NCBI GenBank assembly: GCA_010093605.1
Contig: MU004199.1
Span: 682,001-746,000, forward strand
Reading direction: 5' to 3'
Length of the DNA stretch: 64,000 nt
Source of the DNA: Lophium mytilinum
Lineage: Eukaryota
The notes below the pieces were generated by a model. It was not told where the DNA came from and made no database searches. It saw only the letters and a list, made by a program, of their open reading frames with translations. Both the position numbers and the translations under genes were made by a program. Shown in pieces: positions 17,223-54,327 of this stretch. Numbering within the stretch: the stretch's first letter is position 1; every line of letters begins with the position of its first letter.

Positions 17223-20049
17223 CTTCGTTGATCAGCGGAGAAGAATCGACAAATTCGAGGAATAAATTCTGGATATGCGATCGCAGAGAAAGAATGTAGA
17301 AGACAGCACTTGTAAGATGGCTCGGCAATACGATAAGAGTGGATGTGCCAGGTTATTACTTAAGGCATTGGACGCTGTCAGCGTGTCGGCAAGGGTTGAT
17401 CCCAGCCATCACCCCCAAAGCCGTTTGAACCATCGGCGCATGAGCCTCAAAGTTCAGACTTGGACAGAGGCCGTTCACATTAAATGGCTAATGCATGACA
17501 CTGATCCTTTCAAGAGACGCAAAGCTGGGGTACCTAGACCGTGTGGGGAATTCCGGAGCATGCATACCATTTCACTGGTTGGTCGGCGATCATGACTCGA
17601 GATGGCATGGGCCAGGTCAGGAATACCATGGTAAAATGGTGCCTGAAGAACAACAGCACCCTTTCACTTGCTCGAGGCGAACATCCGCCTACCATTCGGG
17701 TGGCGTCTGGGACGGGTATTTGTGCCGAACCCTACCGGCTGGGCGGCCTATTAATCCTCGACGCGAGGTACGCGACGTGTAAATGGGCTGAATGTCAGGT
17801 TCCAGGCAGGCCACCGTAACTGTAGCGGTCTATACCTTGAAGAAAATAGGTGCGACAACGGCTATGATTTTTTGCCTAACCAGCTGTCGACATTTCGAAG
17901 TCGATCCTCAATAAAGTTTCGTCGCGGTCCATGTTCGGATGAGAATATTCATGCCCCCTCCTTTACTCACGACTCGGAAGCGTGTTGTCTAGAGGGGGCC
18001 ACGAGATAATCCAGACTCATGAAGGCTTTCGGGTATGAGAACCGCGCGTTCTCTTTTGTATACAGATGCTAACTGAGGACAAGGATTGAGGAGGAAACGT
18101 CTGAATTTGCAGGCGGAATCAAGAAAGCAGCAAAAGAGAAGAGAAGAGAACGTAATGATAGATAGGCATTAGAGGTTCCATGGCTTGGTTATTGGTCAAA
18201 AAAAATGAAAGACGCTTTCGGCAGGCCTGGTGGCCAAGTGAGGCAGCCAAGCTTTACACCGTGCGAGTGATATCGACCCTTGTTAGTATAGTTTCCCATT
18301 AGCCCCTGAGGCCAACGAAAATCGCTGGAGTCCCAGCGGTTCGGTCCGACCGTTTAACGAGTCAAGGCTGGCTAGCATTAGGCGTAGTCTTGTCTCAACT
18401 CAAGACAGATGGGGCCCCATGCCACTGTCTTCTGTAACCGAGCAAAATGCCGGTCTTGGTGAATAAGTGGTCAAGGCGTCAGTCTTCAGAGAAGACCAAT
18501 GAAGCGGTGAATATTACCTTGAGCAGTAGAGCAATGGCTGTGACTTGGCATATGTGCAACCTTCTCCTACCCAAATGGGGTTATATGAGCCTGGAAGGCT
18601 ATTGAGCGGGAGCGGCCCGCAGAGAAAAACAGCAACGGGGCGCTTGAGTCGTCTACTAGTACGAATTCGGGAGTTTGGGTAGGCTACTAGTACCCGCTCT
18701 CGAGTAAGGTAAATTCTGAAGAAGTGGTGCGGTGGGCTGAGAGCAGGAAAACAGTGGGGCTGGATCACCCTTTCACACGACCCTTAACATACTATGTAGA
18801 CAAACTTGTGGGAAACACCTGGAGAAGAACTCTACCTCCCCAAGAAGTTCTTGAAACAGTGTTCGCTTGGCGACCTCTAGAACCATAATTCTTAAGGGAG
18901 AACTTACGCCCACCGGACACGGCTCGGATACGGGTGCGGATATCGGGGACGGACAGGAAAGAAAGGTCAACTTCCTGCTTGCGACCGGCAACCAGGTTAG
19001 GTAAAAAGGAACGTGGGTGAAGATCCTATCGGAAGTTGTGGAGGATGAGGGTTTGGTGGGTGACGGCAAGGGCGCGGAGATGAAGTCGTCGATGTTGAGA
19101 AGAAGAGTTGAGTCACGTGAATATAAAGCGCATGAATCCTAATCCTTTTAAGTTGGCGTCTGATGGCTTCAAGCCATAAATATTAGGAGGTATAGTATGA
19201 GCTGTCAAAGAGCCTATTGAAGTTACTAGACGACCTGAAGCACAGTTGCTCACGTGATGATCGATCTTTATTCTATCGAGTTCGCGTCAAATCAGGTTTC
19301 GCACTATCTCCACTACACGATTTTGAATACCTTCAGCTCCGCACAGGTCCTCTAGTTGCAATTGAATGATACATGAATCATCCACGGTACCTGTAAGCGC
19401 TCGAAATGCTTCGAAATGACAGCAGTCAATTCTATTATTAGACGAGGCAGCGAGGCGGGAAAAGGAAAATGCAGTCTCGCCGACGGAGAGTTTACTCGGG
19501 CCTTTCCAACCCCTAGTGTCGCTTTATTAATCAGCCAACATCGTTGACGCAGGGCCGCCCTCGCTGTTTGAACTCATTTTGATGAGACAATCCTTTCAAC
19601 TCCCTTTGATTCGCAGTTTTTCTTAATTTCTCAGCGTATGAGCCTGGATCTCATTGGGGCGCTAGACCTTTGGTCGCGTGCCGTTACGGAGAGAGCGAAC
19701 GAGATACCAAAAGGCAACGCGCGAAAGAGCTTGGCTGTCGGTCGGCCTCACGTCCTATGCAAAGCCATACTCATCCTCACCGCTTTCTAAGCCAGGAAAT
19801 CGTCTGTATATGGGGCAATTGGGGTCCCAATTTAGGCTAGTGTTCGCACGCTTGAACTTCCTCAAGGCTGCCAAGGTCTGATCAGGATTTCGCAGCAGCA
19901 AACTCAGGTTCGCTTAGCCTTTGCTCAGATCAAGACTTGTGGATGGTTTCAGCAACAGAAACTTGAAGAATCTGATGGGTTCAATTTTGGGCCAAGGAAA
20001 CGGCGCATACCCGGCCGCTGACGGCTTAAGACGCTAGATTGTAAAATCA

Positions 20050-20272
20050 CAATACTAGGTCAGAGGGTTGGGCACACGGAGATGTCGTTGCTCCGCCTCC
20101 GCTTTTGGTCCCTTAGCACTACTGTAAAGAATACTACGTCTAGCAGATATTAGCTTTGTTGACAGGTAGTCTGATTTATAATGTGCTGACCCTTACGTAG
20201 TATTTGGAGTTCGAAAGCGAATCGGGGTACCCCCAAGCAGTTGGGGGGTGCGCAGACTTATGCCATAGTGCA
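20050..20272 (-). mobile_element. Decayed copy of the MITE family found at 44984 and 47703
   Basis: caatactaggtcagagggttgggcacac ... cactactgtaaagaatac...ctagcagata...aggtag ... ggggtaccccc ... gtgcgcagacttatgcc is colinear with the reverse complement of 47703-47929. Many transition differences. Confidence 0.6.
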
Positions 20273-20503
20273 GCAATAGGCCATCTTCAAAATCTGTGTA
20301 TCCACGTCCACAACTGCTTAGAGTAATTCGATCGATTTTCAGAAACCCAGGCGCGATGTCAAGGTGGGAGTATAGACGCTCTCTTGATTGACTGGCTGTT
20401 TTCTGCCCGGGCTGCCCCTCACAGTGGTGTCAAGCGAGTAAGATTGGACCCAAGTAGTGATGATTCCGTGTGCTTAGGCTTGTGGCCTGGTCGTACGCGA
20501 GCA

Positions 20504-24777: not shown

Positions 24778-25847
24778 ATTGGCGCGGAGCTGAGAGTGGC
24801 GAGTTAGTGAAGAAGGGGGTTTGAAGGCTTCGTAGAGGTCTGCAGAGGTTCCGAGGAAGTTTTCTGCGGTGGAGATGGGGTGGATGGAATTGTTGAGTTC
24901 GATTGGCATTTTGGACCTTTCTAAGCCGTTGAAGCATGTTGTATGGAGTGAGCCTTTTCTTGTAGGGACACTGAAATTATTGAAAGAGGCGAAGCTGCAA
25001 GTGCAGTTGGATGATGAAGCCCTATGGGTTTTGTCTGAAGCATTAGGGTGGGTCGATTCGTTGGCCACGCTGAGAACTCAATTCTGGTCGAAATCAAGCT
25101 TGTTTTGTTCGCATACAATGATCTTATTTTCTATTTATGGTCCGGGGCGCAACGCGCGCCATCTAAAAAATCGCGGCCGGACCGAACAGAGTGTTCTGTT
25201 ATGTGAGAGCACAATGTTGGGGACGACTTAACAGTGTCTAAGGTGCCTTCTATGAGCTTTCGGAAACCCAGGCACGCTTTAAAGCTGGACGCGATGAAAA
25301 TTACGTTGCTTTATGACAGACTAGCTACCTAGCGGTCGGGAGACCCCCGGCAGCGGTCTCGAGGAGTCAAGAATGACACTCGAGCGGTAGTTATTGTGTA
25401 CATTGAACTGACGGTCGAGAGTGGACGTAATGGGAACGAACGTAAAGTATGATGAATTGAGATTCAGGATTCATTTTGATTGGTCGATTATTCAACGGAT
25501 GAGTCGCTCCTGGCGGTGGTGTTGGCTGGTCAAGAAAGAAATTCAGGTTCGGGGATCTCAGTTTGCTCACGCTAGGGACTGGATTGAGTAAGAAACGCGT
25601 TACGAAAGGGAAAAGGCATTGAAAATCAATCTAAAATCTAATCGAAAACTGGACAGATGTGGAACTCCGACAACGAGAAGAAGGAGTCACGAATGGCACC
25701 TAAGCTGTGACAAGTCCGTATGGTTGAGCTTTGAAATGAATACCGGAAGAAAGTGACCTACCATGTGATCGAAAAGTCGGCCGGGACGAAAGATCAAGCT
25801 GTTGCTGCTACAGACATGAGCGACAGTTCGCAGCTAGCAAAGCCCAG

Positions 25848-41814: not shown

Positions 41815-42690
41815 ATGCGGGTCAACAACACAATTCATCATACCCATCTGGCGTGCGACAGGCAGCTCTCGGAGCGAATGCAGGGCGCTGCAATCGCGAC
41901 GGCAACGACGGCATGACCACAATTACAAAGTTTCGCGATAGCCCTATAGCTTCAAGCTTGCATAAAAAAGCGATTGCTCCCTGTTCGGTATCTCCAGGGC
42001 GTGTTTAGCTTTCTTTCTTTTTATGTTTCAGCTTGTCGTCACTCTGGCAGTAATCAGTAACAAATCTTATTTTCCAAGATCATAACATTTTAGCGGTCCT
42101 GCTAGCATCCCTGACTACCGCTTATCTAATAAGATATTACTACTAATGCAGAAGAGTACTGAAAGTTAAGCTTTACGGAAAGGCACTTACAGCGAATGTT
42201 AACGATGCCTGCAATTATAAAGCCGATTTCGGATGTCAGATGCAATCACTGCATCTAAGGCAGGCTAACCTCAGACCGAGATACTAATAATCAGCCTAAA
42301 TTACTAGGGCCTTAAGTAATTGGTAGTGTGGTCGATATCATGATTGGCAGGTCCCGATTCCTATTCCGTCGGGAACCATCCGATGAACGCTAAGCACGTT
42401 CGGTACTATCCCTGTTCAACCTATTGGTCGACAACTATCCTTATCATTTGAAGCGACTTGCTCCGAAACAATTGTGGTAAATAAAGGCGACGGACATGAA
42501 GCTTGGTGTCGCATGGCAATCGGCATGATAGGGACTAGATCTTAAAACGCCGATGACGGACCAATATCTGAGCATATAGATATATGGTTATGATTCCCGA
42601 TGATCTGGTCCTCGGAACTGTCAGATCTCCGCTTTGGTCTTCTCGAAATCTGTATTTAGGACTAGGTCGTTTGAGTACTCAGTAAACACC

Positions 42691-44961
42691 ATGGAAGCAG
42701 TCGCGGTAGTGAAGCCACCACTGTCCCAGGGCGTTGCCTATGGCATCGTTCTTGGTATGTACGCCCAACATCCCAGCTACATTATCTTGCTGACTGCTTT
42801 CAAAAGGATTTGGTATCGTCTTCGCATTGTCCATGAATGCAATCACGTGGATATCTCGAAAATATCTACATGAGAGCGCGGTGAGTAAAGCAGTGTGACT
42901 GGCGTGGTGTTCTTCAACTGAGATATATAGGACGCAAACATGCAATTAACGGCTCGCAAAAGCGTCAAGTCTGGACTCGTGGCTTCTGCTGTTGTCTCTT
43001 CCTGTGCGCATATCCACATTCTCCTCATCTGAACTCTCACTAAATTCGCTAAGGGTGCTACGCTGCTACAATCCTCAATTCAGTCCGCTTAACCTATGTG
43101 TTCGGATTCCCCGGCCTATGGTGGTTCGTCAGCGGCGCCACTGTTCAGATTATTCTCTATGCCGTCATCGCTATCGAGTTGAAGCGTCGTGCCCCTCGAG
43201 CCAACACAATCCTCGAAGCCTTGCGGATCCGCTTCGGGACAGCTGCTCATATCATCTTCTTCGTATATGGAGTCTCAGTTCAGATCCTCATCACTGCAGC
43301 ACTCCTTTTGGGCGGATCAGCAGCTCTGAACGTCACGACCGGGGCCAATGTCATTGCGATGAACTATCTGATTCCTCTTGGTGTCGTAGCTTACACGTAC
43401 TTGGGCGGCTTGAAGGCGACCTTTCTGTCTGATTATATCCAGTGAGTACTGCTATCTCCGGTACTACTAGGTTTACTAAAGTTTCAAAGTACTGTGATCA
43501 TCTTTGTCATTCTTCTCATCACCATGTTCGCTGTGATGAGTCCAGCTGCCTCTGTGCCGATATTGGGCTCCCCTGGAGCACTTTGGGATCTACTCCAGCC
43601 AGCCGCTACCGCACATCCTGCTTATGGAACCAAAGGTGGAGAGTATCTCACCATGGAATCGGGACAGGGTCTCTTGCTCGCTGGTGTCATTCTGGTGTCG
43701 GGCTTCGGATCAGTCTTTGTAGACCCATCTGTACGTTATCTCCTATCTCTTCCAGACTTCAATTGACAGCTAGCAGTATGGTCAGAAGGCCATCGCGGGA
43801 GAGCCTTTCGCTGTCGTCCGGGGCTACTTCTATGGAGGCTTCGCTTGGTTCTCTATACCTTTAGGTCTTTGCGCAACGATGAGCTTCGTAGCGGTCGGCC
43901 TTCAAGACACTGACTACTGGCCAATTCAAGGTGGGATCACCGCCTATCAGATCAACAATGCCCTTATCCTCCCTCTCGCCGCACAAGCCGTAATGGGGAC
44001 AGGCGGCTCCGTCGCTGTCATCTTGATGGTCTTCATGGCCGTAACCTCATCCTTCAGCGCCGAGATCATCGCCCACGCCTCCATCGTAACCTTCGACATC
44101 TACCAGCCCTACATCAACCCCGCCGCCGACGATAAAAAGCTAAAACTAGTTTCCCACCTCGCCCTCACAGGCTTCGCCATCTTCTCTGCCTCATTCGCGA
44201 CCGCCCTCAACGCCTCCGGCGTCTCCATGGGCTGGATCCTCGAATTCGTCGGCGTCGTTCTCGGAGCTGCTGTGATACCCATCGCTCTAGCCATCACAAG
44301 CGCGCACGTCTCGCCTCTATACATGATCATCGCCGCGCCCGCAGGCACGATCTGCGGACTCGCAGCCTGGCTCGGAACGACAAAAGGCATGTACGGAGAA
44401 ATCAACGTCACCACTACCTTCGAGAACTGGAGCATGTTCGCCGGGTGCACCGTCAGCCTGGGCCTCCCACTGCTCATTTGGGCATGCATGTGGCCGTTCA
44501 TGCGCACACCGTACGACTGGGACAAGCTCTTCCTCATGCAAGCCCTACAGCCACGCGCAGGTGATGCCGTGTACACCTACGGCGAAGACTCAGATCTGGG
44601 AGCTGACTGGAACCCACAGGGTTTGCGACAGGCGAGCAATTGGGCGAAGATCGTGAGTGTAGTGCTGTGTCTGATCTTCTTGATCATCATTCCGTTTTCG
44701 TTATATGGAACGGGTTATGTGTTTTCTAGGAACTTCTTTACGGGGTGGACGGTGGTTGTGTTTATCTGGAGTTGGTGTGCGGCGCTGCTGATCTGGTGTA
44801 TGCCGGTTTGGCAGAGTCGGATGCAGTTAGTGGGGATCGTGAAGGGGCTGTTTGGGGCAATGCCTGGTCGTAAGAAGGCAAGTTCTGTTGAGGGACAGGA
44901 TGTTGTGGAGATTGAGCATAAGGGATTTGAGGCGGGCGAGAAGGGGAAGGTGGAGCATTGA
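42691..44961 (+). CDS. DUR3: Urea active transporter (sodium:solute symporter family)
   Basis: PPLSQGVAYGIVLG, ARKSVKSGLVASAVVSSW, SGATVQIILYAVIAIELKRRAPRANT, YTYLGGLKATFLSDY, FMAVTSSFSAE, YGTGYVFSRNFFTGW. Confidence 0.92.
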
Positions 44962-44983
44962 GAGTGGGCCTGGCTGGCGGTTA

Positions 44984-45361
44984 CAGTGACAAGCCATAAG
45001 TTTGGCCACACTGGTTCGCCACTGCTAGGGGCACCCCCAAGGGTCTAGAAGATCTATAGGCGAGGTTGAATTTCAAATAGTATAGATTAGACTGCCTCTT
45101 GACTAAGTAGCTTATTAGCAGCCACGCTACCCCCTACGGTGGCGTTGAGTGAGCAATATTAGAGCCTAGCAGTAGCAAATCTAGGTGTTACAGGGTTTCA
45201 AAGATCTAAGGGCGATGCCAAGTTTCAAGCAGTGCAGGTTAGATAGCCTCTTGACTGCGTACTTTCGTAGCAGCCAGGCTACCCTATACGGTGGTGTCGA
45301 GCGAGCAACATTAAAGCCAAGCAGTGATAGTTAAGTGTGCCAGACTTGTGACCTACTACTG
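44984..45361 (+). mobile_element. Tc1/mariner-type MITE, 378 bp, two internal ~151-bp units
   Basis: TA|cagtgacaagccataag ... cagacttgtgacctactactg|TA; internal duplication (gcctcttgac at 45094 and 45246). Confidence 0.8.
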
Positions 45362-47413
45362 TAGCTGGTTGATCTAGGGTTTTGGAGGATGGCCCTGATC
45401 TTATCCTATCCTCGTAGAATATACGTCTAGCTGATGTTTTACGATGCTTTCGAAGCACGCCAAAAGTGGCAAGAGTGTGCAGGTTTTCCAAACTAATAAT
45501 CAAACTCTCAGTTCGCGGTTTCCCGACGCTCGATTCGCATCCCATGGACTTCACATTTTCTATGCTGCTTTGGGGTCATCTAATAGCGCTCGATAGGTGG
45601 TGTCTTTCACTAGTTCTCATCACTTGATTCAAAGGCTTCGGGTTTTTACATCGCGATCTTATTCGGAGTCGTAATGTCTGAGGTGGTTTAGCAGGTCACC
45701 CAGGCCCCCAAAAGAATAGACCGAAGCTGCCGAATCATGCTGTTGCATCTCGCGTTATGTAGGTCTATGGACGTGTCCAAAATCTTACACCGTGGAAACA
45801 TCTAGCGTCATAGGGCTCGGTAGGGTGTCGTGGGTGTGGGTGTGTACACTCCCAACATTATCGTCGCGCATGGTCTGATTTGAGCGCTTCAAAATTTAAC
45901 ATCATGAACCCGATTGGATTCAATAAGCCTGGCGCTCCCGACGGTGGTATCTAAAGCCTAAATAGTAGAACTATCTAGCGTACGATTTTGACTCTGGCGT
46001 CTCTTACATTGATTGAGATTTTGTGCACTACACTGGAGGCCCTCCTACGGTGGAATATAAGCTCGAGGCAGCCATAATTCATAGCGCCTGGTTCCCGACG
46101 TGGCAATCATGACATTGCATCTAGCTTTTTTAGAGTAGGTTGGAGGACTTCTCACAGTGGCAAGAGTGTGTCAAAGTCTTGATATATGAGAGTAAAATTC
46201 AATACTGTCTACAAAAAGGTATCCATGTGCGCAAGAAATCTCACAAAAGTAACGACAAGACGTATCCAACTATTTCACGCAGCGTAACCTCCATACACCC
46301 ATCTTGCACGACATTTGGCGTACTCTGCACACCAAGTCCCCGCTGCCTGCGGGCTCTTTGACACCTAGGCCCCGTAACGTCGCTACTTCCTTTGAAACTT
46401 GCACCGGCCGTGTGGTCCTTCCGCCCTTGGTCGTATCGTCGTTCGTTCACAGCTCTGGATATTGCCAACATCACCAAATCGCGCCGCATGCCTATCAGGC
46501 GCAGCTGGAAGATGAACGGGCTTAGGATAAACCTATAGGGGTAGGATGCTATACTTTTGTAGCCGCGGACTTGTCGTGTGTAGACGCGGCAGCTGCCATT
46601 CTCCGCACTCGGTAGCCATGCTCTGTGAGTGAAAGCCCGTTGTGCTTTACAAGGCTCCACAGTACTAACACATGTGCGGTAGTAAGTACAGGGTATTTGC
46701 CTCGTTGCGAGTGAAACGCGGACCTATTCATACAGTTCCAACCAAGCAACAAACCCTCTGTCCCTCCACCAACCTCGCAAAGTGTCTGCAACAACCATCT
46801 CTGATTACAGTCCACACCACAGCAGGAGCGACATTCTGCTGACAAGCAACGTGAGATGATGTTGGCTGAGGGTAGGTCGGCGTATGGAAAAGCCGAAGCT
46901 TGCGTAGCACTTGGCATTCCCGAAACCATCCCGCGGAGGCAAGCTGACTCGCCGGATTCTGTGGGACAGCCAACGGATTATGTTTCTTCCATCCTAACTT
47001 CGAGTCTTCCCATCCCAACTCTACATCCAGCCTTCCTCTCATCAAACGCCATCTAGCAGCTAGCCCTAATCGACAGCACAATCCAAGTATCGCTTTTTGG
47101 CGCCGCGCTGCAGCTCTTCGCAAGCCCAGGCAGCTAGAACTGCCTCGAACGACTACTATTTTGACCAATACACTACACCCTAGCTAGGGTACTCCTGACG
47201 GCGCTATCCAGCGCGCAGGCACAACGCCCAAGCAGTCTTATGTCTATGCTGCTCATCATTACTAGCTAATATACACTATTACTGGTAGATATATACACCG
47301 GATCAGCACTATCAAGTACCTGAACGTAGTGATAAACACCTGAAAAAGTTAAAAAGTCACCATTTTAAACATTTAGAAAACGGCCTAAGGCACCTTTACA
47401 CGCCGTCTTTAAA

Positions 47414-47673
47414 AGGTAACAGAAGGCATAAATGTAGGTTTTATTAGTTATACTGGCATATTTACAAGGCAACAGAAGGCACAACTGTAGGATTTGTTAG
47501 TTATGCTGTCATTATCACGAGGTAGTGCAAAGCACAAATGTATGTTTTATCAGTTATACTAACATTATCACGAAGTAACACAAGTTACAAATGCGGGATT
47601 TATCAGTTATACTAATATCATCACGAGGTAACACAAGTTACAAATGCGGGAATAATCAATTATACTGGCATTA
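47414..47673. repeat. AT-rich minisatellite, 53-bp period, about 5 copies
   Basis: Unit starts at 47414, 47467, 47520, 47573 and 47626; consensus close to aggtaacacaagttacaaatgtaggttttatcagttatactaacattatcacg. Confidence 0.92.
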
Positions 47674-47702
47674 GTGTGCTATACTACTAAGGACTCTGTG
47701 TA

Positions 47703-47929
47703 CAGTGACAAGCCACAAGTCTAGGCACACTAGCTCGACACCGCATGGGGTTCCCCCACAGGATTTCGAAGATCCAAGGGTGATGTCGAGGTTCAATCAG
47801 TGCAGATTGGACTGCCTCTTGACTAATAGGCTGCTCAATAGCCAGGGTACCCCCGACAGTGGTGTCGAGTGAGCAAGTTAGAGCCAAGGTGTAATGAGTA
47901 TATGTGCCCAGACTTGTGGCTTAGTACTG
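47703..47929 (+). mobile_element. Tc1/mariner-type MITE, 227 bp, one internal unit
   Basis: TA|cagtgacaagccacaagtctaggcacac ... atgtgcccagacttgtggcttagtactg|TA. The 28-bp TIRs match at 23/28, with a perfect 13-bp core aagccacaagtct. Confidence 0.88.
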
Positions 47930-48086
47930 TAGTTCCGAGTATGCAAAGAAGGAGAAGAAAGGAAGGTGAATTTAAACCATTTTCCGTTAGCGTCAGAAAA
48001 GGCTTGGCATCAGTCCACAACAAGAGCGCGCACGCACTCGCGCTCCTCTTCTCTCCTTACAAGCTTTTTCATTTCGGCGTGAGACT

Positions 48087-51000
48087 ATGGAGGGCCTTGA
48101 GTCGACATACACAGAGTGCCGGGACTTCGACAAGGAGGCCTTCGAGGGCGACATGCTGGAGCAGGTCATGGCGATGGATAGCCAGTGGTACCCAGCTGGT
48201 GACGATGCGCGATTCTTCGGGCTTCATGGCTCCGACTACCCTCAAGATTTCAAGCAATTCTCCAATCGTACAACACTTGCAGTTGTTGTCACGGATGATA
48301 ACGAAATATGGGGCACGCTTGACCGGACAGCGAGTGGGAATAGCAACGCGTTCGTCACGGTCTGTCCAGAGCTGCACAGCCAGTGTCCCGGGCTCTTGTT
48401 TCAAATCTCAGACGACCCCGATCAGAAGTACTTCAATCAGACGTTTAAGTTCCAAGGCAGCGCCATAGCTGTGGAAGAGAAAGGGCCAGCTTACACCTTT
48501 GGGTCACCACTCTTCGACGATTCGAAGGCAACAGGCCACGACAAGGACACCTGGCTCAAGTATATCCAGGAGCAGGTGCCGGCGACCCGCCCCGAGCTTC
48601 TGACACTGGCTAAAAACGGTCATCTTGAGATGTACCAACTCAAAAGGTCACACGCAATGCCAGTCTCCCGGGACACGGCGCGGCATATGGAGGATATTCA
48701 AAAGCGTATCGAGAAGGAAGAGGCCCTCTCCGAAAAGGATAAGTGCATGCTGGCCTTCGCTAATTCTGGCACTTACACCATCTTCGTCAAAGGGAGGTTC
48801 AAGTTCAACACCGCCGAGCAAACCAAGCAGAACAACGAGCGCTGGATGGAGTTCAACATGTGGTTCCAAGCCATGATGAGCTACGCGGCAATGCACGGCA
48901 ACCTTTGGTTCTATCGGCACCAAGCGCTGGACTTCGTGGACCCGCTCCACGAGGCGTTTCCCATAGAGTCGATGCGCGTGCCTCGCTGGATGGTCACCGA
49001 ATGGACGTTCGAGCGACGGATTACGGTTGACGGGGAGGGCAAGAAAAGACACGAGGGCAAGTGGCAGAACCCTGAGCCCAAGACTTGGGCCCAATTCAAG
49101 AACATCTGGCTGGATATGGAATCAAGCCTGTTCCTCCACAGACTGGCGCTAGTTCGAGAACAACGTTTCCAATCCAAGGAAATAGCGGCGCTGCTGCAGT
49201 CCGGGCCAAACTGTATCCTCACAGCTAAATTTTGCCCAAGCAAGTGGCCGAAGGTTGGCGCAAATTGCACCTACTTTGTATCCGTCATCGGCCAGAACAT
49301 GCAACACTTCGTCGATGGTCTGGTTCCTATGCCAACCGCGGGCATGGCGATCGAAGTCAGCCTCATCTCCGAGGTTGACGACAGCAAATCGGTTCGCTAC
49401 AAAGGCCGGGTGGTCGAAGATCCTTCCGCCGCAGAGGGGGTCCTCTATACCTGTGCCATGGAGGGTCCGGAGGACGACAGTATTGACCCCACGAAGGAGC
49501 GCAACATACGACTTGTGGTTTTCGACTACACGTTGGCCAATCAACGCAAGCTCACGGCCCTCAGCGAGTGTGCAAAACAGCGCCCTACTATCGCGGGAAA
49601 CATCGGGGTCAATACCCTGGGGGTCCTCTTCGACGCTAACGTGCCGGACCCAAGCGCTGCCGACCTGGTAGCGGAGCTGAACACGAAGGGTGCACGCGCC
49701 GTCGCCAATGCCATCGCCGACGATGCCCACCTCAACAAGACGCAGGCGATGGCCTTGCGAGCTATGATCGAGTCGCTCAACCCTATTGTTCTCACACAAG
49801 GACCACCTGGTACAGGCAAGACCATGTTGATTAGAGCTATAATCAAGATGTTCGCCACTCTAGGTTACAAAGTACTCGTCACCAGTGGACAGAAAGAGGC
49901 AGTGAATAATTGCGCTAATGTCGCCAAAAGAGATTCTAAGCGCGATCGCGAGTTCGTCCACTTCACGGGTGCGTCGTCGACCCTGAGGGGAGCACAAATG
50001 TTGAAGATGCGCCATGAAGCCAATACTGCCTCTTTTGACATCAACATTAACCAGGGACTGACCGACCCGAGTGTCGAGGACGACCCAGAAACTATAATAT
50101 GGGAGCTTCAGCACAGTGCCGACAAATCGAAGCGACCCCAGTATAGGGAGGATGCATTCGGTGCCAGGTTGAGGGGGTATATGGAGGAATGGAGCCAAAA
50201 GATCGACGGGAGGACGCCGCATGCCATGCAAAAGGAGGCCAGCGACTACTTTGCCTACGAGGCTAGCTTGCAATCCCTGCTTCAAGCCACCAACCTTACT
50301 CAGGAGGACCGCAAGGAAATCAAGCACACTCGCCAGTGGATGGAGAAACTTGAGCGCGATCTTGGCAGGCACTTCCTAGCGAACCACGTCGCAGCAGTCT
50401 TCTGCACATCAAGCATGTCCTGCCACCCGCGTCTATACGAAGCGTTCAAGCCCGATATATTGCTGGTCGACGAGGCAGCTCTTACATCCCTGTCCGACAT
50501 CGCCACATCGATGATCGCGTTCGAGCAGACTCTCAAGCGAGTCAGCTTGCTAGGAGATCATGTCCAACGGAAGGCCGTGGTTGGCGGAAGAGGATGTAAC
50601 GAGGGCTTCGCGCTCCTGGAATCGTCCATATTCGACAGGCTCATACGCCCTGGTTCCGGATACGAAGTCACGATGCTTAACTTACAGTATCGGATGCATC
50701 AAGATATCTGCGCCTGGCTTAGCAAAGAATTCTATAACGGGCTCCTCCAGACCCACTTCCAGACCGTCAATAATCTTGAGCCGGAGCTTCAGGTCACTCT
50801 GCGGGCGTTCTGGCGGGCTCGGCTTGGAGAAAAATGGATCGGAAAGATGCGGATTGCGATCGATGTCACCGACGTTCCTATGATCAAGTCGATGACATAT
50901 AAGCAGACAACATCGCAGTACAATATCTGGGAGAGCGACATGGTCCTCGAAATTATCGACGCTATGCTATATTTCGACCCACCGGTTGCCAAAGAAGGTG

Positions 51001-51566
51001 AAATCCAAGGCCGAAAGATCGAAGCTTCCGATATTGGTATCATTTCGCCATACAACGGACAGGTTGGGTGGGTCATCAGTGCGCTCGTTAAGCAAGACAA
51101 TCTCAGGGCGCACAATAATCAACCAAAGCAGAATCGAGACATCCAGGTCTCAAGCACTTACGGAGTGCAAGGCCGGGAATTCAACATTGTTCTCGTCAGC
51201 ATGGTCGCCAACGCTGGTACTGTGGGTACGCAAGAGGATAGGTTAGCGGTTAGATTCATTGCCAATAGGGGTCAACTTTGCGTGGAGATGTCTCGGGCTA
51301 GGTGCAACCTCGTCATCCTTGGCAATTTCCAGGCATGGTATCAGGGCATCTACACCAAGAACAACTTCATGAATATGGTCCCTAACAGGCATCTCAAGAG
51401 CCTTGTCGTCGATCTTCACATGAGAAAAGATGTCTTTACCAGTGATGAGTTCAGGAACTGCCTCGCCGTCGGCGAATTCGACAAGAGGGTAATTGGCCGT
51501 GCGCCTCGCGGTGGTGCGGCTCGTGGAGGTACTTACCAGGTAAATAAGAGACAGCGTGGTATTTAA
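48087..51566 (+). CDS. Intronless superfamily-1 Upf1/Sen1-like (DNA2/NAM7) helicase with a long unrecognised N-terminus
   Basis: LNKTQ, QGPPGTGKT, LLVDEAA, LLGDHVQ, SIFDRL, LNLQYRMHQDI, FYNGLL, IGIISPYNGQV, QGRE, MSRAR; 1159-aa open frame. Confidence 0.93.
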   Translation: MEGLESTYTECRDFDKEAFEGDMLEQVMAMDSQWYPAGDDARFFGLHGSDYPQDFKQFSNRTTLAVVVTDDNEIWGTLDRTASGNSNAFVTVCPELHSQCPGLLFQISDDPDQKYFNQTFKFQGSAIAVEEKGPAYTFGSPLFDDSKATGHDKDTWLKYIQEQVPATRPELLTLAKNGHLEMYQLKRSHAMPVSRDTARHMEDIQKRIEKEEALSEKDKCMLAFANSGTYTIFVKGRFKFNTAEQTKQNNERWMEFNMWFQAMMSYAAMHGNLWFYRHQALDFVDPLHEAFPIESMRVPRWMVTEWTFERRITVDGEGKKRHEGKWQNPEPKTWAQFKNIWLDMESSLFLHRLALVREQRFQSKEIAALLQSGPNCILTAKFCPSKWPKVGANCTYFVSVIGQNMQHFVDGLVPMPTAGMAIEVSLISEVDDSKSVRYKGRVVEDPSAAEGVLYTCAMEGPEDDSIDPTKERNIRLVVFDYTLANQRKLTALSECAKQRPTIAGNIGVNTLGVLFDANVPDPSAADLVAELNTKGARAVANAIADDAHLNKTQAMALRAMIESLNPIVLTQGPPGTGKTMLIRAIIKMFATLGYKVLVTSGQKEAVNNCANVAKRDSKRDREFVHFTGASSTLRGAQMLKMRHEANTASFDININQGLTDPSVEDDPETIIWELQHSADKSKRPQYREDAFGARLRGYMEEWSQKIDGRTPHAMQKEASDYFAYEASLQSLLQATNLTQEDRKEIKHTRQWMEKLERDLGRHFLANHVAAVFCTSSMSCHPRLYEAFKPDILLVDEAALTSLSDIATSMIAFEQTLKRVSLLGDHVQRKAVVGGRGCNEGFALLESSIFDRLIRPGSGYEVTMLNLQYRMHQDICAWLSKEFYNGLLQTHFQTVNNLEPELQVTLRAFWRARLGEKWIGKMRIAIDVTDVPMIKSMTYKQTTSQYNIWESDMVLEIIDAMLYFDPPVAKEGEIQGRKIEASDIGIISPYNGQVGWVISALVKQDNLRAHNNQPKQNRDIQVSSTYGVQGREFNIVLVSMVANAGTVGTQEDRLAVRFIANRGQLCVEMSRARCNLVILGNFQAWYQGIYTKNNFMNMVPNRHLKSLVVDLHMRKDVFTSDEFRNCLAVGEFDKRVIGRAPRGGAARGGTYQVNKRQRGI

Positions 51567-51744
51567 GTGGCAGTAGATGTTAGCAGTCCACGAATCCATA
51601 AGGTATACCCATAACTTTCATGCTTCTTTAGCACCGTTGGAGGTCCTTTAGTATGCTATTGCTACTCATGAAACACCAGCTTTGGTAAGCCTGATAGCTC
51701 TCTAGGCCACCTCAGACGGTGTTAAATTGCTTGAGTGTGTCGCT

Positions 51745-52567
51745 TGACACCACTGTAAGGAGTACCCCCGCTAGCAAATACCAGCGTCGTCAAAAGGTAG
51801 CTCAATATCTATAGTGTTTACCATAACATCGTATTCGCGGTTGGAAAAGCCTATGAGTTCGATGTTGTAGTCCCGCGACTTCACTCTTGCGCGCTTAGTA
51901 GCACTATTAGGGGTGGCCTGACTAGCCTGTGGCGTATCTGTTAAAAGGTAGCTTAATATCTATAGTGTTTACTTTAACATTGCATTCGCGGTTGGAAAAG
52001 CCTACGAGTTTGATATTGTAGTCCCGCGGCTTCACTCTTGCGCACTTGGTAGCACTGTTAGGGGTGGCCTGACTAGCATGTGGCGTATCCGTCAAAAGGT
52101 AGCTTGATGTCTATGGTGTTTACTTTGACATCGCATCGGCGGTTGGAAAAGCCTATGAGTTTGATTCTCTAGTCCCGCGGCTTCACTCTTGCGCGCTTGG
52201 TAGCACCGTTTGAGGTGGCTTGCGGCGGTGTAAATATGGAGGGCACGATGTTAAAGTTTTAAGCCTTTAACTTGGAAGGGCTAGGATTGTAGGGTTTTAA
52301 GGGGTGTTTAATGGCATTTGAGGTGGCCTATAGGGTTGTGAATATAGGCACGGCTTCACTCATGCGCGCTTGGTAGCACCGTTTGAGGTGGCTTGCGGGG
52401 GTGTAAATATGGAGGGTACGATGTCAAGATTCTAAAGCTTCAACTTGGAAGGAAAAGGATTATAGGGTTTTAAGGGGTGGTTGATGGCGTTTGAGGTGGC
52501 CTGTGGGGTTGTGAATATAGGCACGGCTTCACTCTTACGCGCTTAGTAGCACCGTTTGAGGTGGCCT
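51745..52567 (-). repeat. Composite tandem array: ~151-bp units followed by 173-bp units that share a ~40-bp core
   Basis: Core g(g/a)cttcactcttgcgcgcttggtagcac at 51877, 52028, 52179 (period 151), then 52352 and 52525 (period 173). The reverse complement resembles the MITE internal unit. Confidence 0.92.
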
Positions 52568-52884
52568 GCTCGGCTCTTAGTCTTGTTAAAAACTGTCCTT
52601 TTCCGATCTTATATAATGTACTGTAGGACTCCAGGCGGTGCTAGGCCAGTGTACGGAAAGCCTAGAGGGTATATGTTGCTCAAGTATCTCGCTGCGGCTC
52701 TCATCACTCAAAACTTCTTATTCGTTGTATCCTTATGGATATCGTAGAGCCAAATGCGACGAGCCAAGAGAGAGATGTCGTCAATAGAAAAAAAGAAGTC
52801 TACGCCCCCTCGGCTCTCGGTCTATCCCTTGCGTAACGTGACCGCCAAAAAGAAGAAGCTGAAGCAAACAGCAAAAGAGATTTG

Positions 52885-52997
52885 TGACATCAGTGAGATT
52901 CGAACTCACGCGGGTTGCCCCAGTAGTGTTCCACAGTGTGTTTTCACATTGTAAAGTGACTTGAAACTACCGCCTTAGACCACTCGGCCATAATGCC
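52885..52997 (-). tRNA. tRNA-Leu(CAA) with intron
   Basis: GGCATTATGGCCGAGTGGTCTAAGGCG GTAGT TT CAA G [intron] ACTAC TGGGGCAACCC GCGTGAGTTCGAATCTCAC TGATGTCA. A/B boxes, long variable arm and downstream T-runs are present. Confidence 0.95.
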
Positions 52998-54327
52998 AGT
53001 TGAATACTGATGCCAAAAAAATAGAGCGTACACATCCCTCGAAGGGATGGAATATTGAAAGGCCTCAAAATACAAGCCCAATTGTTATGCAAACTGCAGA
53101 AAGCGGGACAAGAAGAAACTTCATAGCAATCCAGTGCACCATTCAAGGAAGGCAAGATGATTGCTTGACCGCTATGGCCCTCAAATACCTCAGACGCCTT
53201 CCCAAAGACCTCGTCAAGGTGTCTCAAGCCTATTCGGTCAGTAATCACGAGCTATACGGCTAATCCTTTTCTCACTATCTCTTCATAGGCATAGTAACTT
53301 CCCTGGAGAGCTCAGAATGCTCAGTCGCTCTCGCTCTCAATGATGTAGCCAGCCAAACATCTGGCATCAAAGCAATTGGCATCATTCCTTCCATTCTACA
53401 ATCGTCCCATCATTCCAAATCGGACTTTGTGACCAGAGGGAGGGCGGTCTAATGTGCAGGACACATAGTCATCTGAAGCTCGCAGACCCGCGGAGGGTTT
53501 CGAAGAGGATGTATGAAGAGGACTTTTTGTGTGGACTGGGGGCCAAGGAAACTCGTGTTTAGACGCGGTTATCCCTTTGATATTCATTCTGCAGGTATTT
53601 TCTGTGGGGAGATCGTCAACACGGTGATGATGCATTGTTCGTTTTTTTGACCTGGCCAAGGGATTTGACAGGACTCAAGATACGCATTTCTCAGGCCTAG
53701 GATCTCTGAAAGGAGCTATGGTTTGCCGCATAAAAGACAATTCCGGTATTAGCACAAGAATCGTTGGCAAAACGAGCTAGGAAGAAGAGGAGTTGGAAAA
53801 ACGGCTGAAATCATCAGAGTTTCGCTAACTCTGGAAAATCCATTGTCGAGTTACCAGCATGGGCATTGCAGGAAGTCCTTGCAAATGCGATTGACGGATA
53901 GTCTTCGTTCGTGATAATGGCTGAGAGAGCAGGGGTATTTTTACGCCGATATATATAACATATGTTACGAAGCTGGTCAATGCGTTCGTGATCGTGAATT
54001 TCTGAATAGCATCAAGATCCAACTCAACACCACAAACTAGCTATCTCACTCTTTACAGCTGCGTTTCCGTCTGTAAATTTCCTGGGCTAGCTTAAGACTC
54101 TCTTTTCGACAACAACGACCCCTTCCAAAGCTAGCAAGCACTACTACATCACACCAATCAAACTAAAGAAGTAACTACGAAGACAACGAGCGAACCAATT
54201 GACACTCTGCGTTCTATTATAAACCCAGTAATACCTCCGACCGGCATACGTAAGCTCTCATGCGCGCTCCCCTTGGAGTATGTCAGTCTAACATCCTCTA
54301 GATACCACCATAATCGCAATCACCACC

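Follow-up and report, generated by a model that had tools for sequence, protein, structure and literature searches.

We analysed a 64-kb stretch of the Lophium mytilinum genome (C19:682001-746000, here called the window; the genome comprises 43.4 Mb in 49 contigs labelled C1, C7 and so on), in which an intact gene for an Upf1-like superfamily 1B (SF1B) helicase lies amid pieces of several repeat families. The helicase, encoded by a single-copy gene, falls in a Dothideomycete clade of Upf1-like helicases that is apparently undescribed. Its gene is probably a resident of the host genome, located in an intergenic zone that has collected non-autonomous elements over time. The repeats seem not to have served as a vehicle for the gene. 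A first-pass annotation of this DNA had suggested a non-autonomous mobile cassette. This suggestion is not supported because the helicase is single-copy, without a paralogue in this genome, and because the repeats that bracket it are of several families, each with ends of its own and with copies at other places; no shared terminal inverted repeat (TIR) or target site duplication (TSD) enclosing the gene was found.

The helicase gene and its predicted fold

The gene occupies positions 48087..51566 of the plus strand and encodes a protein of 1159 aa with matches to Pfam AAA_11 and AAA_12 over the cut-off. The protein is composed of an N-terminal region (residues ~1-335), a stalk with a 1B barrel (~340-500), the RecA1, 1C and RecA2 domains (~545-1125) and a short RGG tail. 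The protein retains the SF1 helicase motifs, among them Q, I, II, III, V and VI; the sequences LNKTQ, GPPGTGKT, DEAA, LGDHVQ, QYRMH, QGRE and MSRAR cover the Q motif and motifs I-VI. Motif Ia is divergent (TSGQKEAVNN), and its TSGQ variant is also found in relatives P0012, P0016 and P0018.

An AlphaFold model made with an alignment of 18 sequences (predicted local distance difference test score, pLDDT, 77.9) matches Upf1, IGHMBP2, SETX/Sen1, Dna2 and ZNFX1 across residues ~340-1125 and contains the helical insertion of subdomain 1C at residues 633-766. The best structural matches are tied, with IGHMBP2 at Z 29.0 and a root-mean-square deviation (rmsd) of 4.3 and Upf1 at Z 28.1 and an rmsd of 6.0; the model aligns with these two proteins over 578-595 residues at Z 25-29. 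Upf1 is also the top match of the barrel alone (Z 7.2), using a second, low-confidence model of residues 192-538 (pLDDT 58) that is a test mainly of the barrel. As described in PMC5452015, a layout of stalk, barrel, RecA1, prong and RecA2 is common to Upf1-like SF1B helicases. The label 'Upf1-like' that the gene had received holds. The N-terminal ~335 residues have neither a Pfam family nor a usable Atlas match, and a Pfam scan detected no CH, SEN1_N, R3H or nuclease domain in the helicase. Its composition is host-like, with a G + C content at third codon positions (GC3) of 0.66, a codon adaptation index (CAI) of 0.80 and a TpA/ApT value of 0.60; codon use and indices of the repeat-induced point mutation (RIP) type are as in host genes.

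The sequencing runs found, including the only other run besides the assembly, are letter-identical over the helicase gene. One contig of run X3 spans positions 47937-51716 with 0 differences and 0 skips. This run is probably RNA, because it has GT..AG joints in neighbouring genes. It lacks cover in bins 42201-42767, 45603-46169 and 52974-53540, which fits RNA and is no proof alone. The helicase gene is probably transcribed unspliced; run X3 does not give the strand, and carry-over of DNA is possible. The gene, a single open reading frame (ORF), is thus probably intronless, as first described, but this is not distinctive, long open frames being usual for the Upf1-like helicases of this genome (2011 aa for SEN1 and 1599, 1688 and 1186 aa for others).

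A separate clade of Upf1-like helicases

The family was found only by an exhaustive protein search with residues 1-538, and its apparent range and patchiness are limited by this one search. Among 27 non-self matches, 25 are family members; the other two (P0029 and P0036) were discarded as repeat-rich chance matches. AAA_11 or AAA_12 is present in 19 of the 25 members, while six have no Pfam match. The members are 22-29% identical to the query, with no relative above 30%, and a GNxWFYRxQ...PRW motif before the stalk is common to them. An organism is named for 8 of the 20 relatives looked up (Boeremia, Lophiotrema, Dendryphion with two, Melanomma, Curvularia kusanoi, Ascochyta and Taxawa), all of which we take, from the genus names, to be Dothideomycetes. 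A word-indexed search with the single query gave 11 matches, which besides the query itself are generic helicases only. The same kind of search with alignment A1 gave 55 matches with the query as the sole family member, and with an N-terminal alignment it gave 0 among longer proteins.

In a tree of 26 rows and 410 columns, the 10 family rows are monophyletic with support 100/100 and stand apart from a ZNFX1-like group (96.7/99) and from an HCS1-like group. Deep branches lack resolution, and the tree settles no sister group for the family clade. Two family clades occur within one species (Dendryphion). The first-pass annotation had called for a phylogeny against Upf1, Sen1, SAD-3 and ZNFX1; this tree places the helicase in its own clade, apart from UPF1, SEN1 and ZNFX1-like proteins, while Neurospora SAD-3 and Schizosaccharomyces pombe Hrr1 themselves are not among its rows.

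Known identities were considered and rejected. The helicase is not an orthologue of UPF1/NAM7, since the Pfam scan found neither a CH zinc domain nor the UPF1 1B profile, the tree groups it apart and the UPF1 of this genome is on contig C1. It is not SAD-3, Hrr1 or ZNFX1, having no PF25396 ZNFX1 domain and no NF-X1 fingers and lying apart from the ZNFX1-like genes of the genome in the tree. Nor is it SEN1 or HCS1: the genome encodes SEN1 and an HCS1-like gene elsewhere, and the helicase falls in its own clade. With UPF1, IGHMBP2/Hcs1, Sen1/SETX and Dna2, as outlined in PMC5452015, it shares the Q motif, two RecA domains, the stalk and 1B barrel, a helical 1C and the predicted fold (Z 22-29). 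It differs from them in its low identity (16-22%), its separate clade and its N-terminal region of ~335 aa without a Pfam or Atlas match. The clade is apparently undescribed, Dothideomycete and fast-evolving, with an N-terminal region of its own. A literature search, judged by titles and the beginnings of abstracts and covering few subscription journals and no supplements, returned no paper describing it.

Copy number and other helicases in the genome

A protein search of the genome found the helicase to be single-copy, its other matches being UPF1, DNA2, a ZNFX1-like gene and a helicase joined to an RNA-dependent RNA polymerase (RdRP). The N-terminal half has one genome match, itself. The genome contains 15 AAA_12 matches, including SEN1, AQR and the HCS1-like gene. 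The paralogues with the same flanking repeats that were to be looked for under the cassette proposal do not exist in this genome.

On C6 (L182:1744-6807, ~57.7-62.8 kb) there is a second very divergent Upf1-like helicase in a 1688-aa single frame, with weak AAA_11/AAA_12, no other Pfam domain and no match to the family N-terminal profile; it forms the longest branch in a quick tree lacking SEN1 and DNA2. On C8 (L082:4875-8687), an RdRP domain is followed by a co-directional Upf1-like helicase, and the two are probably one fused RdRP-helicase gene.

Predicted function

The Upf1-like family has few known eukaryotic members, and these are central in RNA decay, transcription termination and silencing. 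From its family membership, we infer an ATP-driven enzyme that translocates 5′ to 3′ along a single strand of nucleic acid, probably RNA. It would strip proteins or unwind duplexes, and the private N-terminal region of ~335 residues would supply specificity for a partner or target. We can only guess at an accessory role in RNA surveillance or in defence against viruses or transposons, to which we give slightly less than an even chance, because the family diverges fast and has paralogues and because the genome encodes every housekeeping Upf1-like helicase at another locus. SAD-3, Hrr1 and ZNFX1 are silencing helicases. The present protein is like them in its Upf1-like core, its several fungal paralogues and a possible silencing role, and unlike them in having no PF25396 domain or zinc fingers. 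An extra, fast-evolving Upf1-like clade in a large fungal class would be a candidate for a new pathway of RNA surveillance or defence.

Repeats around the helicase gene

The order of elements reported earlier, namely a miniature inverted-repeat transposable element (MITE), a 53-bp array, a second MITE, the helicase, an inverted array and a tRNA gene, is correct, and every part lies where it had been placed. Both of these MITEs belong to one family, here called M. MITE1 (44982..45364) has two 152-bp internal units and MITE2 (47701..47931), which adjoins the helicase start codon, has one; each has 29-nt TIRs, of the CAGTG type in MITE1, and TA at both ends. MITE1 has nine matches elsewhere (348-398 bp, 81-83%). 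MITE2 has a 97% copy on C7 and at least 41 other matches (40 of the 305 genome candidates were scored). Family M has the properties of Tc1/mariner-type MITEs, that is, TIRs, TA duplication (24 of 30 copies are bordered by TA at either end), 305 candidates and no coding capacity. MITE2 is a young, independent insertion into an older repeat; the same older repeat on C1 lacks MITE2 and has a single TA at this empty site. Further M-family copies are found at 20049-20491 and 25210-25394; the first two, oppositely oriented, lie immediately beyond the 3′ end of a HET-domain gene.

The second family, Z, is represented by one piece on either side of the gene. The left piece (47152..47977, plus strand), which is interrupted by MITE2, consists of a 151-bp unit tail, five 53-bp units (4.9 copies as an array at 47414-47673) and an end segment. 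It matches C1:2099932-2100417 at 76-98%, and partial copies are present on C1, C12 and C14. The right piece (51746..52569, minus strand) consists of ~3.5 copies of the 151-bp unit and 2.3 of the 173-bp unit, with the arrays at 51788-52569, and is inverted with respect to both the left piece and the MITE unit. The 151/173 part has seven other loci at 67-88% identity, which gives eight candidate loci in total in 43 Mb. The 151-bp units are 54-60% identical to the reverse complement of the MITE internal unit; the three units compared score 69-84, more than any of 300 shuffles per unit (highest 56-60). The two Z pieces share only a ~65-bp unit tail, which is 76% identical over 34 bp and matches globally at 38 of 65 positions, no better than other units do. 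Five other Z loci were read, four with 151/173 arrays and one with the 53-bp array; they lie beside unrelated genes and have no shared cargo. At one Z array, on C14, a 1184-aa single-frame ORF without a Pfam or PDB match is located directly upstream (L081:5844-9398).

Pieces of two further MITE families had been overlooked in the right flank, where the array itself is as first described. The first is an internal fragment of the ~430-bp X family (51530..51745, plus strand; profile positions 225-446 of 490) without either TIR. According to the alignment of its junction to two other copies, helicase codons 1149-1159 (the last 11), together with the stop and the first part of the 3′ flank, derive from this fragment. 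Of the 16 relatives that were examined, three have a longer, RGG-rich C-terminal tail, and the X fragment would have clipped the RGG tail of the helicase and given it a new stop codon, with only the low-confidence tail of the protein lost; the locus would thus be a case of a MITE fragment rewriting a protein C-terminus. Capture of the helicase inside an X element was rejected, since no left half of X lies on the upstream side. The second piece, found by a profile match, is the right half of a ~290-bp Y-family MITE (52550..52772, plus strand) with the left TIR missing. The claim that the helicase is flanked by inverted copies of one repeat family holds for the inverted Z pieces; the flanks as a whole are a patchwork of at least four genome-wide families.

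X and Y, which have different TIRs, and the 173-bp and 151-bp units have one short core motif in common. It is found at 51687-51724, 52547-52584 and 52178-52569, and the junctions between families coincide with it or lie close by. The motif may serve in binding or recombination.

Resident gene or cargo

None of the repeats provides ends that enclose the helicase: X is without both TIRs, Y is without its left TIR, and each M element is a complete unit by itself. Six candidate end pairs showed no terminal inverted match or TSD above background, the longest repeats being 4-6 nt, although the position of the ends is uncertain and decay could have erased an old TSD. Clusters of M, X and Y are found in arbitrary sequence at five per 200 kb (2.5 per 100 kb) and in shuffled sequence at 0. 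This background comes from twenty 10-kb samples, all on contigs C1-C10, and an extrapolation to ~1,000 clusters rests on five counts. One nested pile (X/B/A/X), at C1:3154k (L079), has no helicase. Insertion near tRNA genes, another part of the cassette proposal, is not borne out, as MITE clusters are present at 3 of 30 tRNA loci versus 4 of 60 arbitrary pieces (Fisher p 0.68; 30 of the 42 tRNA matches of the genome were examined). At the level of the protein, a Helitron was rejected as well, the helicase having no Rep or PIF1 match and an Upf1-like fold.

The repeats are ordinary in kind (compare PMC3227409 and PMC4079207). Like the Tc1/mariner-type EFT MITEs of Epichloe, as presented in PMC3227409, they are short, non-coding elements with TIRs and TA duplication in hundreds of degenerate, nested copies. 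They are unlike them in that M elements carry one or two 152-bp units related to free arrays, and in that the X, Y and 173-bp units have a core motif in common despite different TIRs. With Tetris of Drosophila virilis (PMC4079207) and Pack-TIRs (PMC8277862), they have in common modular, non-autonomous repeats, internal tandem units and rearranged forms, as well as links to MITEs and inversions.

On the reading that we prefer, several non-autonomous elements would have entered the intergenic zone at different times, and the repeats would be passengers beside a resident gene. The Z pieces would then be either two hot-spot insertions or one element split by an old inversion of ~4.6 kb between inverted core motifs. 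Flipping 47190-51745 would give, on the minus strand, the order B-A-C-D, and the B-A and A-C junctions are present at other Z loci. As a hypothesis only, an old inversion between inverted core motifs might explain the layout of Z; in a test of it, the two breakpoint cores were no closer to each other than to other units. The locus would be a clear case of stacked MITEs that mimic a gene-carrying element.

Several observations weigh against a resident gene. Two low-copy Z pieces face each other across the helicase, while at the other Z loci read the units all point the same way. Four of the six repeat clusters of the window are within 7.8 kb around the helicase, which is far above background, although the region was picked for this. 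A metagenome scan found two family loci, both distant relatives, and on one of these two foreign contigs an intronless family member comes after a 91-bp tandem array and before an ORF for an Ulp1/C48 protease. According to PMC5751038, helicase and C48 protease are accessory domains of fungal DNA transposons. This neighbouring ORF of the other fungus (L096:8745-12614) is intronless and 1289 aa long, with an RS-rich repeat region and C-terminal CxxC pairs; its Ulp1/C48 protease domain is just over the cut-off.

It is unlikely, though worth weighing, that the gene reached its site by lineage-specific relocation, for instance as cargo of large elements, with the present repeats uninvolved. The family is deeply diverged, with two clades in Dendryphion; neither foreign contig has a tRNA, and the 14.8-kb one has other neighbours. 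However, the foreign loci are distant paralogues, so missing synteny says little, and the Pfam scan of 19 ORFs of the window turned up neither a transposase nor a recombinase domain.

Still less probable is that the helicase was cargo of an old foldback-type composite element, resembling FB-NOF or a Pack-TIR, which landed beside the tRNA gene with the Z pieces as its arms and was later riddled with MITEs. The inverted, low-copy Z pieces on both sides, the Z end 110 bp before the helicase ATG, the distant relative with an upstream tandem array and an Ulp1 neighbour, and the patchiness of the family among named matches would all fit such an origin. But the Z pieces are not mirror images, sharing only the unit tail, no TSD above background was found at the candidate ends, there is no second or parental copy of the helicase, the five other Z loci have no shared cargo and the composition of the helicase is host-like. 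The locus differs from Tetris, Pack-TIRs and FB-NOF in that the helicase is accompanied by neither matching arms nor a parental copy, and no TSD above background was found around it. We similarly doubt the wider form of this idea, in which the whole clade would be cargo or helper of unrecognised, modular, foldback-like elements of Dothideomycetes and the inverted Z pieces their decayed arms. If true, it would mean a transposon system that carries an Upf1-like RNA helicase, perhaps countering host RNA surveillance.

It is very improbable that the ORF is open only by chance, as a relic that died recently or has no function. In favour of this, a MITE fragment has cut into its 3′ end, motif Ia is divergent and no relative exceeds 30% identity. 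Against it, 3.5 kb is open with catalytic residues, the model is confident, a contig of the RNA run spans the ORF, the TSGQ variant recurs in P0012, P0016 and P0018 and the part lost is only the low-confidence tail.

Surroundings of the locus

Upstream of MITE1 are the 3′ exons of a sodium:solute symporter gene (43118..44961, plus strand), recognized by TIGR00813 at E 8e-18, below the cut-off, and without a match in the Pfam scan; DUR3 is an earlier label only. A contig of the probable RNA run over this gene (43777-45104) extends into MITE1 and has 15 differing letters. The stretch between MITE1 and the left Z piece (45365..47151) is unique and apparently non-coding, with short frames only and no match but itself in a genome search; the stretch 45370-47160, first described as decayed, is not a repeat. 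Within it, at 46200-46865, lies a probable-RNA contig with a depth of 29.9, possibly a non-coding or unannotated transcript.

On the other side, an intron-containing gene for tRNA-Leu(CAA) (52885..52997, minus strand) was found by Rfam (RF00005, 43.8 bits), while ARAGORN gave no call there; inspection of the sequence gave CAA as the anticodon and showed a long variable arm. Its intron has, at 52925-52960, an 11-base word in common with the inner consensus of the Y MITE, seen by eye and possibly due to chance. Far from the locus, coding-type tandem repeats (57/114 bp and 87 bp) occur at 884-1642, within overlapping ORFs of 424 aa and 430 aa that have no Pfam match.

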